NCBI GenBank assembly: GCA_028872875.1
Contig: JAGWOC010000006.1
Span: forward strand, 7,796 to 71,795
DNA from: Chloroflexota bacterium
GTDB lineage: Bacteria > Chloroflexota > Dehalococcoidia > DSTF01 > JACRBR01
Reading direction: 5' to 3'
Length of the DNA stretch: 64,000 nt
Of the stretch, positions 30,040-32,826 are shown in pieces; position 1 is the stretch's first letter; every line of letters starts with the position of its first letter. The notes beneath the pieces were generated by a model, which saw only the letters and a list, made by a program, of their open reading frames with translations, did not search any database and was not told the DNA's origin. The position numbers were made by a program, and so were the translations under genes.

Positions 30040-32826
30040 TCACCGCACCCTCGCCACCTCCACCCTCGTATCGCGATCGTTGTGGCCGGGCTGCAGGATC
30101 GCGGGCGCGGGCTGGATGTGGAAGTAGCCGCCGGCCAGCTCGACGGGGTTCATCGGCGTGGCGATCACGTTGCGATGCCCCATGCCGCCTTCGAACTGGT
30201 AGTTCTCCCAGGCGTGGTAGACGATCACCTGCCCCGGCCGCACGCCGGGCGCGATCTTGGCCCGTATGAGAAACGAACCGATCTCGTTGTGCACTCGCAC
30301 CAGGTCGCCATCCGCGATCTCCCGATCGCGCGCGTCGATCTTCGACATGAAGATGGCCGGTTCGCCCCGCTCCAACTGCAGCATCAGCGGATTCGTGCGA
30401 AGCGCCGCATGGATGCTGTGGCGGTTGTGGCCGCCGGTCATGATGAGCGGGAAATCGCCGCCCGACGTCACCGGATCCTTGTGGACGGGCAACTCTTCTC
30501 CGAGTTCCATGTAGAGCGACTGGTCGATGTAGAACTGCATGCGGCGGGTCAGCGTGGGCCAGGGCATCTTCTTCTCGGTGCGCCAGGTGTGGGGCGTGAA
30601 CGGCTGATCCTCGCGCATGTCGCCGGCGTTGCTCTTGTTGCCGGGGTGCGAACCCAGCCCCGTGAACCGCACGAAGCCCTTCCGCTTGAAGTCCTCCCAG
30701 TCCGGCTTTCCAACGTGCGTTGATGCGTCGATGACCGCCCTTGCGACCTGTTCGTGATCTTCGGCGCCGAACTTGCCGCGAAACGTCATCCTGCGCACCA
30801 GATCATCGCAGCGGTAGCGCTTGCCTCGTCCGGAGTACGATGCTACGCCCCGCGATTTGGCGCGCTCTTGCACCTTCTGCGCGAGCAGCACCATGATCTC
30901 CCACTCCGGTTTTGCCTCGCCCGGAGGCTTCACCGCCGCCGTCGTCACGTGGGCAAACGGCGCCAGGGGCGTGTACCACTCGTTGACATCCGTCTTCTCG
31001 TACGATGCGGCCGCGGGCAGCACGTAGTCCGCATTCAGCGCGGTGGAGCTCATGCGGATGTCGGTGGCGACGAGCAGGTCGAGCTTTGGCAGCATCTCCT
31101 CGAACAAGCGGTGCCCGCCGCGCACGCGCCGGAGCGGATTGCTCCCGGTGGCGAAGAGGATCTTCGGCGTCGTCATCGATGGCAGCGGTTGCCACCCGCG
31201 CCGCACCGAGTCCGCCATGTACTCGTCGACATCCTTCGTCAGATACGGATCCCATTCCTTGCTCCGGCCGCTGATCTCCCGCAGGCCGCCGTGGTGGTAC
31301 CAGAACATGACGGCGCTGGTGCCGCCCCAGGCGCTCACTTTGCGCCCGAGCTGGAACATCGCCAGTTCGTCCGTGTACCCCTTCATCTTCATGCCGATGA
31401 ACGGCAGAATGGCCGGCGCGAGCACCTTGAGCGTGTCCAGCCGACCGAGTCCGTCTCGGTATGGCATGGTCAGCGTGCCATCGACGATAAAGAACGGCAG
31501 AGTGTCGAAGCCTGCGCCTTTGCGTCCCATTTGGCCACAGAGCGCGAACAGCAGGATCTGCGCGCGCATCATCAGGTCGCCGTGGTAGTACTTGGAGATG
31601 CTGGCGCCGGCCACGCCGGACGCCGCCCTGGCCGCCGCAAATTCCCGCGCGACGTCGCGGATCACGCCGGGATGGACGCCGCACACGGCCGACGCTTTCT
31701 CAGGCGTGTAGTCGCGGTCGAGGCGCTCCTTCAGCACCTGGAACACCGGCTTCACCTTCACGTCTCCGTCCTTCGTCCTCACGTCGTACTCGCCGTCGAG
31801 CGCCGGAGCGATCTTGCCGAGCCTGAGCGTCTTCTGCGGGGCCTTTACGGCGCGGTTCTCATTCACGTCGTACATGAAGAACACGTCGTCCTTGCCGCCG
31901 CGCCGCATGTCGGAATCGCGCAGGAAGGTGCCCGTGTCGCTGCGCAGCAGGAAGGGCAGGTCGGTCTGTTCGCGCACGAAATGCGCGGCGGCGAGGCCTT
32001 CGGAGATGATGACCTGCGCCATGGCGAGCGCCAGCGCCGCATCGGTGCCGGGCTTGACGGAGATCCAGCGGTCGGCGTGCACGGCGGATGCGTTGAAGTC
32101 GGGGCTGATCGCGACGATGCGGGCACCGTTGTACCGGGCCTCGGTCAGAAAGTGGAAGTTCGGGATCTGCGTGTACGCCGGGTTGCCGCCCCAGATGAGG
32201 ATGAAGTCGGAGTGGAAGAAGTCGTCGGCGGATCGGCTCGCGACCGGGATGCCGAACGTGACGGCCGCCCCCTGCTGCTCGTCGCCGACTTCGGTGTTGA
32301 GATCGAGCACGACGGCCCCGAGCAGGTTCGTGAGCCGGTTGACGGCGACCCAGGAAGCAACACCGGTCGCGTTGCCATCGAAGACGATCGCGTCCGGCGC
32401 GTCGCGCTCCAGGTTGTCGACGATGCGGTCCGCGATCTCGGTCAGCGCTTCGTCCCACGTCACCTGCTGCCATTTGCCCTCGCCGCGCTCGCCCGCGCGC
32501 TTCAGCGGATGGGTCAGGCGCAGGCTGTCCGTCATCGTGAGCGAGTAGCAGGCGCCCTTCTGGCAGCCGCGCGGGTTGTAGTCCGGGACGGATGCGTTGG
32601 TCTGCGAATAGGTGCCCGATGCCTCCTCGTAGACAACGGCGCCGTCCTTCACGAAGACGTTGTACGCGCAGCTACGCTGATACCAGCAGTTCATCAGGTG
32701 CGTGCCCTTCGACACGCTGTCCCACTGCCAGCGCTCGCGGTACGGGTCGGCGGCGGATGGACGCCGTTGTTCTTCCTCTGACGCCGGCGTCTGGTGAGTC
32801 GGCCCGGAGCTACCTTCTGACTCCAT
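30040..32826 (-). CDS. Molybdopterin oxidoreductase alpha subunit, ethylbenzene dehydrogenase / steroid C25 dehydrogenase-like, no Tat signal
   Basis: YRERWQWD, H-x3-C-x5-C (THLMNCWYQRSC), DYNPRGCQKG, GEGKW, DLNTEVGD, HFLTEARY, SKYYHGDLM, TLTRRMQFYID. Confidence 0.88.
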   Translation of the reverse strand: MESEGSSGPTHQTPASEEEQRRPSAADPYRERWQWDSVSKGTHLMNCWYQRSCAYNVFVKDGAVVYEEASGTYSQTNASVPDYNPRGCQKGACYSLTMTDSLRLTHPLKRAGERGEGKWQQVTWDEALTEIADRIVDNLERDAPDAIVFDGNATGVASWVAVNRLTNLLGAVVLDLNTEVGDEQQGAAVTFGIPVASRSADDFFHSDFILIWGGNPAYTQIPNFHFLTEARYNGARIVAISPDFNASAVHADRWISVKPGTDAALALAMAQVIISEGLAAAHFVREQTDLPFLLRSDTGTFLRDSDMRRGGKDDVFFMYDVNENRAVKAPQKTLRLGKIAPALDGEYDVRTKDGDVKVKPVFQVLKERLDRDYTPEKASAVCGVHPGVIRDVAREFAAARAASGVAGASISKYYHGDLMMRAQILLFALCGQMGRKGAGFDTLPFFIVDGTLTMPYRDGLGRLDTLKVLAPAILPFIGMKMKGYTDELAMFQLGRKVSAWGGTSAVMFWYHHGGLREISGRSKEWDPYLTKDVDEYMADSVRRGWQPLPSMTTPKILFATGSNPLRRVRGGHRLFEEMLPKLDLLVATDIRMSSTALNADYVLPAAASYEKTDVNEWYTPLAPFAHVTTAAVKPPGEAKPEWEIMVLLAQKVQERAKSRGVASYSGRGKRYRCDDLVRRMTFRGKFGAEDHEQVARAVIDASTHVGKPDWEDFKRKGFVRFTGLGSHPGNKSNAGDMREDQPFTPHTWRTEKKMPWPTLTRRMQFYIDQSLYMELGEELPVHKDPVTSGGDFPLIMTGGHNRHSIHAALRTNPLMLQLERGEPAIFMSKIDARDREIADGDLVRVHNEIGSFLIRAKIAPGVRPGQVIVYHAWENYQFEGGMGHRNVIATPMNPVELAGGYFHIQPAPAILQPGHNDRDTRVEVARVR

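Follow-up and report, generated by a model that had tools for sequence, protein, structure and literature searches.

This study concerns a 64,000-nucleotide stretch of contig JAGWOC010000006.1 from a Chloroflexota bacterium (assembly GCA_028872875.1), called here the window, and in particular one minus-strand gene at positions 30040 to 32826, called the target. Our analysis shows that the target encodes an alpha subunit of the type II dimethyl sulfoxide (DMSO) reductase family that resembles ethylbenzene dehydrogenase (EBDH) in family, fold and cofactor-ligand motifs, and that the clade to which it belongs has lost the twin-arginine translocation (Tat) leader of its Tat-bearing ancestors. The clade is a conserved, most likely cytoplasmic and partner-unlinked branch of the EBDH and steroid C25 dehydrogenase (S25DH) hydroxylases, and no description of a cytoplasmic EBDH-like branch was found in the open-access papers and preprints that we searched. 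The best explanation, to which we assign a probability of roughly 0.55, is that the target is the alpha subunit of a cytoplasmic, water-dependent hydroxylase with beta and gamma subunits encoded elsewhere in the genome and with a tie to an acyl-coenzyme A (CoA) pathway. A first-pass annotation, made earlier from the letters of the sequence, had described this gene as an orphan EBDH-like molybdoenzyme without a Tat leader that borrows its partner subunits. As a whole, what it observed is confirmed and its interpretation is partly supported.

An EBDH-like alpha subunit without a Tat leader

The target protein matches the Pfam families Molybdopterin (1.2e-52) and Molydop_binding (1.4e-17) and scores 905.6 bits on the NCBIfam model TIGR03479 (DMSO reductase type II alpha), covering model positions 46-912 of 913. 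This score does not reach the curated cut-off of 984.75 bits, a shortfall that goes with the unmatched model positions 1-45, which are the leader part; the only alpha of the same genome above the cut-off is a Tat-bearing copy on contig C220 (1002.8 bits). On NF042978, the equivalog model for EbdA, the target reaches 645.2 bits against a cut-off of 2000, and it is therefore not an EbdA orthologue. Among solved structures, however, EbdA (2ivf_A) is its best match with 610.1 bits (E 6.6e-182), followed by PcrA with 554.9, NarG with 249.5 and Kuenenia NxrA with 106 bits. The AlphaFold2 model of the target has a predicted local distance difference test score (pLDDT) of 82.8 and a predicted template-modelling score (pTM) of 0.87, and a Foldseek search with this model also puts 2ivf_A first, with template-modelling (TM) scores of 0.90/0.91 at 36% identity. 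Other solved members follow, PcrA with TM 0.82-0.87 and NarG with TM 0.76-0.80 at 20% identity, so that the target has the fold of a solved family member. The ligands of the FS0 iron-sulfur cluster and the aspartate molybdenum ligand expected of type II alphas are all present. The alignment to 2ivf_A also confirms three motifs that had been read from the sequence in the first-pass annotation: the H-x3-C-x5-C spacing of FS0 is real and the same as in EbdA, D182 in the molybdenum-ligand segment pairs with the GD aspartate of EbdA, and K412 in SKYYHGDLM pairs with the EbdA lysine. All of H43, C47, C53, C88, D182 and K412 stay unchanged across an alignment of 32 sequences.

The active site had also been described as altered, and this claim turns out to describe an ordinary feature of the family. 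At the EbdA His192 segment the target reads DGNA--TG, with a two-residue gap and no histidine, and a histidine at this position is found in none of the 51 aligned rows, which include Tat-bearing relatives and the paralogues of the target's own genome. According to a review, characterised S25DH is also without such an active-site histidine (PMC6153880), and a further paper finds His192 substituted in ahy, cmd and S25d sequences, with Asp223 and Lys450 retained (PMC7803848). The lack of the histidine is therefore unremarkable. The sole clade-specific feature at this site is the loop in the His192 region, which has two residues fewer in the target clade's core than it has in Tat-bearing relatives.

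The absence of the leader depends on where translation begins. The minus-strand frame of the target, 30040..33087, starts at a GTG and stays open over 1015 codons, and the ATG at 32826, which gives the 928-residue product, has GGAG 8-11 nucleotides (nt) on its 5' side. All orthologue starts also fall near this position, and the ATG at 32826 is almost certainly the true start. The N-terminus of the target is acidic and hydrophilic, and no RR-x-F-L motif with a hydrophobic stretch occurs either there or in the whole upstream open frame. The claim that a twin-arginine leader is missing is thus borne out for both regions, and a Tat-bearing start upstream of the ATG, which the first-pass annotation had named as a finding that would refute it, is ruled out in the open frame.

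The same condition is found throughout the clade. Among the best 120 database matches, 56 relatives share at least 61% identity with the target, and the next ones fall to 53% or lower. Of these close relatives, 52 include an N-terminus, and 51 of them have no Tat motif, the remaining one (P0056) having a doubtful RRQVM, whereas the canonical S/T-RR-x-F-L leader is present in 61 of the 64 more distant relatives. Trees of 51 rows built with FastTree and IQ-TREE give the Tat-less clade a support of 100, nest it within Tat-bearing rows and require at least three changes of Tat state. This nested position, together with the clade-wide absence of the motif, shows that the Tat loss is derived and has then been conserved. 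Because the clade has lost its export signal, the target is most likely cytoplasmic. Tight grouping with a characterised enzyme, also named beforehand as a refutation, did not emerge from the analysis, and the relatives automatically labelled as S25DH are 50-52% identical to the target and sit in a different, Tat-bearing clade. Ten of the 12 orthologous loci come from metagenome-assembled genomes (MAGs) of Chloroflexota, Chloroflexi, Chloroflexia or Dehalococcoidia. In a class-wide search with two candidates scored per genome, 17 of 301 genomes matched at E <= 1e-100, and only one besides the target's own holds a clade member (71% identity), a yield too thin for a profile of presence and absence.

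It might be argued that a gene with so many paralogues is redundant and that the target is a decaying, non-functional copy. We regard this as hardly credible. The 928-codon frame is intact with a G+C content at third codon positions (GC3) of 0.85, every cofactor ligand is kept in orthologues at 61-96% identity, and conservation is higher in the clade than in its sister groups (0.786 vs 0.688).

Several further observations concern export in this family. Twelve of the first 36 inspected representatives at 50% identity are without a Tat motif, indicating further Tat-less groups. Two of these representatives, P0127 (1152 residues) and P0137 (1130 residues), have an N-terminal extension of about 230-260 residues instead of a Tat leader, which may be a domain fused to a cytoplasmic EBDH-like alpha. 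The signal peptide of the gamma subunit was considered as a marker of compartment and dropped, as it is missing in the two EBDH-type gammas of the target's own genome and also at 9 of 9 Tat-bearing sister loci inspected.

Partner genes and the alpha-beta contact

No EBDH-type beta, gamma or chaperone (delta) gene lies beside the target, and the only such genes nearby are those of the following operon, where they accompany a separate alpha. Partner genes are likewise found at 0 of 12 orthologous loci within the available flanks, and at 0 of the 5 that are flanked by 5 kb or more on each side. In contrast, a beta gene is present at 35 of 67 loci of other, mostly Tat-bearing relatives (21 of the 30 with flanks of 5 kb or more on each side), where the usual order is gamma-beta-alpha(-alpha-alpha)-delta; this contrast is descriptive and carries no statistical test, the loci being related to one another. 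The claim that the target has no beta, gamma or delta genes of its own is therefore correct. The word orphan is apt in that sense but not for a singular case, since the pattern is clade-wide and also genome-wide, 12 of the 13 alphas in the same genome being Tat-less.

The genome of the target (3.4 Mb in 234 contigs, 95.5% complete) encodes 13 EBDH-like alphas with a visible N-terminus and one C-terminal fragment, and the copy on C220 is the only one with a Tat leader. The closest paralogue, on contig C168, is 81% identical to the target; the remaining ones, at 37-43% identity, group in a clade of their own whose FS0 motif is of the HCVDCYPGNC type. The same genome has two complete EBDH-type betas and four fragments at contig ends (4-6 in all), two EBDH-type gammas and one chaperone gene. 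As the assembly breaks at repeated beta genes, the beta counts and the alpha-beta linkages in this genome are uncertain. The visible sequences of the beta fragments at the ends of C220 (11844-12389) and C110 (30970-31512), for example, are identical, and a different alpha follows each. On contig C141 a Tat-less alpha is part of an alpha-gamma-beta operon, so that leader loss in this genome did not entail partner loss. A tandem pair of alphas on another contig is Tat-less as well, and no beta lies near it. A very divergent paralogue is also on record at C141:19328-22321 (minus strand), with a branch of 1.1-1.25 changes per site, a cysteine in place of the first FS0 histidine and another spacing.

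A search of the genomes for matching beta and gamma genes, which the first-pass annotation had proposed, located EBDH-type betas away from the orthologue in all 10 genomes checked, and no genome with an orthologue and without such a beta was seen among these 10. In five relatives with an orthologue, each genome combines 7-8 full-length alphas with about three betas, and a single alpha in each covers the leader section of the model. The presence of a beta in 10 of 10 genomes fits subunit sharing and is also compatible with a stand-alone alpha. Subunit sharing, which the first-pass annotation had noted for some steroid C25 dehydrogenase alphas, has a precedent, since PMC6016249 describes eight alphas, fewer and shared gamma-beta sets and one chaperone in Sterolibacterium denitrificans. 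The counts in the target's genome (13 alphas, 4-6 betas, 2 gammas, 1 delta) fit S25DH-like sharing, with binding as a prediction only. At eight other loci (L034, L038, L042, L044, L050, L054, L060 and L067), 3-5 alphas stand behind one gamma-beta pair and before one delta. These loci are Tat-bearing, come from Myxococcota, Binatia and 'Deltaproteobacteria' MAGs and have a layout much like that of S. denitrificans.

When alpha residues 1-655 were co-folded with the complete beta on contig C59, both given as alignments, the interaction prediction score from aligned errors (ipSAE) was 0.91 against 0.00 for the best control; 58 of 80 solved complexes attained this ipSAE mark, as did 2 of 110 mismatched pairs. 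At least 86% of the contacts agreed across the runs, and the pLDDT of the partner was at least 86. Since the EBDH alpha-beta-gamma complex has already been solved, such a pass shows likeness to this complex rather than binding by the target. Other than the N-terminus, no 15-residue window is relaxed in the clade relative to Tat-bearing relatives.

The first-pass annotation had named the neighbouring NxrB and its chaperone as possible lenders. These genes belong to an operon of the nitrite oxidoreductase (NXR) type at window positions 21964-29918, which lies downstream on the same strand as the target, with its first open reading frame (ORF) only about 120 nt away. Family betas are assembled in the cytoplasm before export, so that compartment alone would be no bar to borrowing. 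However, the operon is self-sufficient: its first ORF (28695-29918) has about eight predicted transmembrane helices and is followed by genes for a Tat-bearing alpha of 1151 residues, which reaches 1708 bits to Kuenenia NxrA (7b04_B), for a beta and a NarJ-type chaperone, and for a gamma of the EB_dh family that carries a signal peptide, and it is a complete, exported (periplasmic) system in a Chloroflexota-like genome. None of its genes, the NXR-type beta and delta included, is near any of the 12 orthologues, and the beta itself is dissimilar. It scores 250 bits on TIGR03478, compared with 471-486 for EBDH-type betas, and it shares 36% identity with EBDH-type betas overall and 41% at the predicted contacts, compared with 49-65% and 59-87% among EBDH-type betas themselves. 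We therefore consider borrowing from this operon very improbable and the weakest of the partner models. The parts of the earlier interpretation that stand are a Tat-less, EBDH-like alpha predicted to be cytoplasmic, its lack of partner genes of its own and the precedent for sharing; the NXR neighbour is an unlikely lender.

Proposed role in an acyl-CoA pathway

The target probably forms one operon with a metallophosphoesterase gene and a tetR gene, co-transcribed with tetR first, and the same TetR-phosphoesterase-alpha order recurs at locus L094. Divergent from this operon is a cluster that encodes a CoA ligase, four enoyl-CoA hydratases, an NMO-type flavoenzyme, a zinc-dependent alcohol dehydrogenase, a citrate-synthase-like protein, an acyl-CoA dehydrogenase and a family III CoA-transferase. 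Two promoter-like sites were found between tetR and the cluster, where 0.5 were expected. At L019 the orthologue is embedded, on one strand with them, among genes of these same families, and at L020 it adjoins such a set, also on the same strand, together with an amidase, aldehyde dehydrogenases and aminotransferases; at L062 an acyl-CoA dehydrogenase follows the orthologue. Four of the seven loci with flanks of 5 kb or more on each side, a number that includes the window and C168, thus have acyl-CoA genes next to the orthologue: the window, L019, L020 and L062. From this context we infer a functional link between the target and the acyl-CoA cluster, with a catabolic hydroxylation feeding a beta-oxidation-like route.

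Under the explanation that we prefer, the alpha subunit would carry a molybdenum bis(pyranopterin guanine dinucleotide) cofactor (Mo-bisPGD) and a [4Fe-4S] cluster and would act as a water-dependent C-H hydroxylase of the EBDH/S25DH type. With the leader lost in the lineage, the enzyme would be made and kept in the cytoplasm. Electrons would leave through FS0 to an EBDH-type beta and probably also to a haem b gamma, both encoded elsewhere and common to about 13 paralogous alphas, in an arrangement like that of S. denitrificans. The alpha would be transcribed with tetR and the phosphoesterase, divergently from the acyl-CoA ligase, hydratase, dehydrogenase and CoA-transferase genes. It would hydroxylate an unactivated carbon in a compound of aliphatic or isoprenoid-like nature, or in the CoA ester of such a compound, and the cluster would then degrade the product. 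A cytoplasmic location would make CoA esters possible as substrates.

A number of findings weigh against this explanation. The co-folding used a truncated alpha and may echo a memory of 2IVF. The residues predicted to contact the beta are no better conserved in the clade than the rest (0.804 vs 0.801, a value reached by 2237 of 5000 random sets), whereas in the Tat-bearing sisters their conservation exceeds that of the other residues (0.781 vs 0.678); we read these data as no sign of interface decay and no proof of binding. The lack of partner genes at all 12 orthologous loci is equally expected of a stand-alone enzyme. There is only one EBDH-type chaperone gene in the genome, and the variable N-termini offer no conserved docking peptide. 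The acyl-CoA context is missing at L021, L022, L023, L092 and L017. The choice of hydroxylase over reductase chemistry follows from family placement only, and we know of no cytoplasmic electron acceptor for any high-potential haem b complex.

Some of these findings would be accommodated by a stand-alone cytoplasmic alpha, which would have lost both export and its partnership with beta and gamma and would pass electrons from FS0 to a soluble carrier, such as ferredoxin, like the monomeric members of the DMSO reductase family. The difference in partner genes between orthologous and other loci, the ordinary conservation of the predicted interface and the varying neighbourhoods of the orthologues all fit this arrangement. 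Still, an EBDH-type beta is kept in every genome checked, no surface segment is relaxed relative to Tat-bearing relatives, and the C141 operon places another Tat-less alpha of the same genome together with gamma and beta. The co-folding result with the beta of the target's own genome also speaks for a partner, although it may echo 2IVF. On balance we think a stand-alone enzyme unlikely.

The second alternative is a cytoplasmic reductase of an oxyanion or an N- or S-oxide instead of a hydroxylase. PcrA is nearly as close to the target as EbdA in score (554.9 vs 610.1 bits), with TM 0.82-0.84, and the clade has no member with a known substrate. However, the FS0 spacing is that of EbdA and not that of PcrA, the nearest labelled relatives, P0064 and P0073, bear the automatic name 'steroid C-25 hydroxylase', and the gene adjoins catabolic acyl-CoA genes rather than respiratory genes. 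These features make a reductase quite unlikely in our view.

Related systems and neighbouring features

The hydroxylase that we propose for the target would resemble the characterised EBDH-family hydroxylases with regard to cofactors, and probably also to the sharing of partners, and would differ from them in compartment. EbdA of Aromatoleum aromaticum (2IVF) has the same FS0 spacing, aspartate molybdenum ligand and lysine. It differs in being Tat-bearing, periplasmic and encoded with its own beta, gamma and delta, and it has His192, where the target has the shorter loop without histidine; CmdA and S25dA are tabulated as periplasmic along with EbdA (PMC10100899). The four S25DH (S25DH1-4) and the steroid C26 dehydrogenase S26DH1 of S. 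denitrificans are comparable to the target in their many paralogous alphas with fewer gamma-beta sets and a chaperone, and S25DH also in the missing active-site histidine, but these enzymes have TAT sequences and are assigned to the periplasm for this reason (PMC7411048). All characterised water-dependent hydrocarbon and steroid hydroxylases of the family (EbdA, CmdA, S25DH and S26DH) are in this way placed in the periplasm, by listing or by argument. Periplasmic enzymes in S. denitrificans imply that intermediates must shuttle across the membrane. NarG is a type II alpha without a functional export signal, with its active site on the cytoplasmic side, and with an aspartate ligand and a His-Cys3 FS0 motif. 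It is, however, a distant relative of about 1245 residues, is anchored in the membrane through NarI and is encoded as narGHJI. PcrA (4YDD/5CH7) shares the aspartate ligand but has an H-x3-C-x3-C spacing, is periplasmic and reduces oxyanions. Two traits of type II enzymes are missing in the target, namely the Tat leader, from which NarG is the exception, and encoding together with beta, gamma and chaperone, the latter also at 12 of 12 orthologous loci.

A cytoplasmic branch would alter the range of substrates and electron acceptors open to such enzymes. In some genomes of 2.4-3.4 Mb, about 1% of the sequence consists of these alphas (7-13 genes, each about 2.8 kb long), and for biocatalysis they would form a pool of export-independent enzymes, perhaps easier to express, for regioselective O2-free hydroxylation. 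We also entertain, as a doubtful but possible extension, a modular system in the cytoplasm, with a small number of shared Fe-S and haem subunits that would serve about ten interchangeable Tat-less alphas, each hydroxylating a different unactivated C-H bond with water, including bonds in CoA-thioesters or other membrane-impermeant intermediates of beta-oxidation-like routes. If true, such a system would be an oxygen-independent counterpart of the expansions of cytochrome P450 or flavin monooxygenases, and its substrate class would be new to the EBDH family. The features of the window that bear on the target are collected in Table 1.

Table 1. Positions in the window of the target gene, its predicted functional residues and the features around it
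Feature	Position	Strand	Basis or remark
Alpha-subunit gene, Tat-less EBDH/S25DH-like molybdopterin subunit, 928 aa	30040..32826	-	TIGR03479, 2ivf_A match, AlphaFold2 model
FS0 [4Fe-4S] motif H43-x3-C47-x5-C53	32668..32700	-	Alignment to 2ivf_A
C88, fourth FS0 ligand	32563-32565	-	Alignment to 2ivf_A
Loop D150-G155 (DGNATG) replacing the EbdA His192 segment	32362..32379	-	Alignment
Asp182, predicted Mo ligand, in LDLNTEVGD; pairs with EbdA Asp223	32281..32283	-	Alignment
Lys412 in SKYYHGDLM; pairs with EbdA Lys450 (KSYHGDLM)	31591..31593	-	Alignment
Metallophosphoesterase gene (Pfam Metallophos 3.6e-20)	32844..33662	-	Other frame, ends 15 nt before target ATG
TetR-family regulator gene	33659..34339	-	4-nt overlap with phosphoesterase gene
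Promoter-like sites, divergent pair between tetR and acyl-CoA cluster; minus-strand one 34394-34365	34365..34439	.	Consensus matches only
Acyl-CoA cluster, divergent from tetR operon	34473..44367	+	Proposed pathway partners
ORF with about 8 predicted transmembrane (TM) helices	28695-29918	-	Ends 12 nt before NxrA-like start

The ORF with about eight predicted transmembrane helices was considered as a membrane anchor and rejected, as it matches no Pfam or NCBIfam family, has no paralogue in the genome and is not near any orthologue. No counterpart upstream of NXR-like alphas was found in two relatives, and its best Atlas score of 0.84, with none at or above 0.9, makes it a lead only. Just past the acyl-CoA cluster, at 45236-46237 (plus strand), is a gene for an APH-family phosphotransferase. 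This gene is likewise a lead only; the side-chain route of S. denitrificans has an ATP-dependent kinase after the molybdenum hydroxylase (PMC7411048). No RNA run was listed as carrying this DNA. Near-identical DNA, with at least half of the sampled words present, occurs in four sequencing runs from three studies, three of them mine drainage and one a sediment metagenome, and one of the four runs is possibly the assembly's own source.

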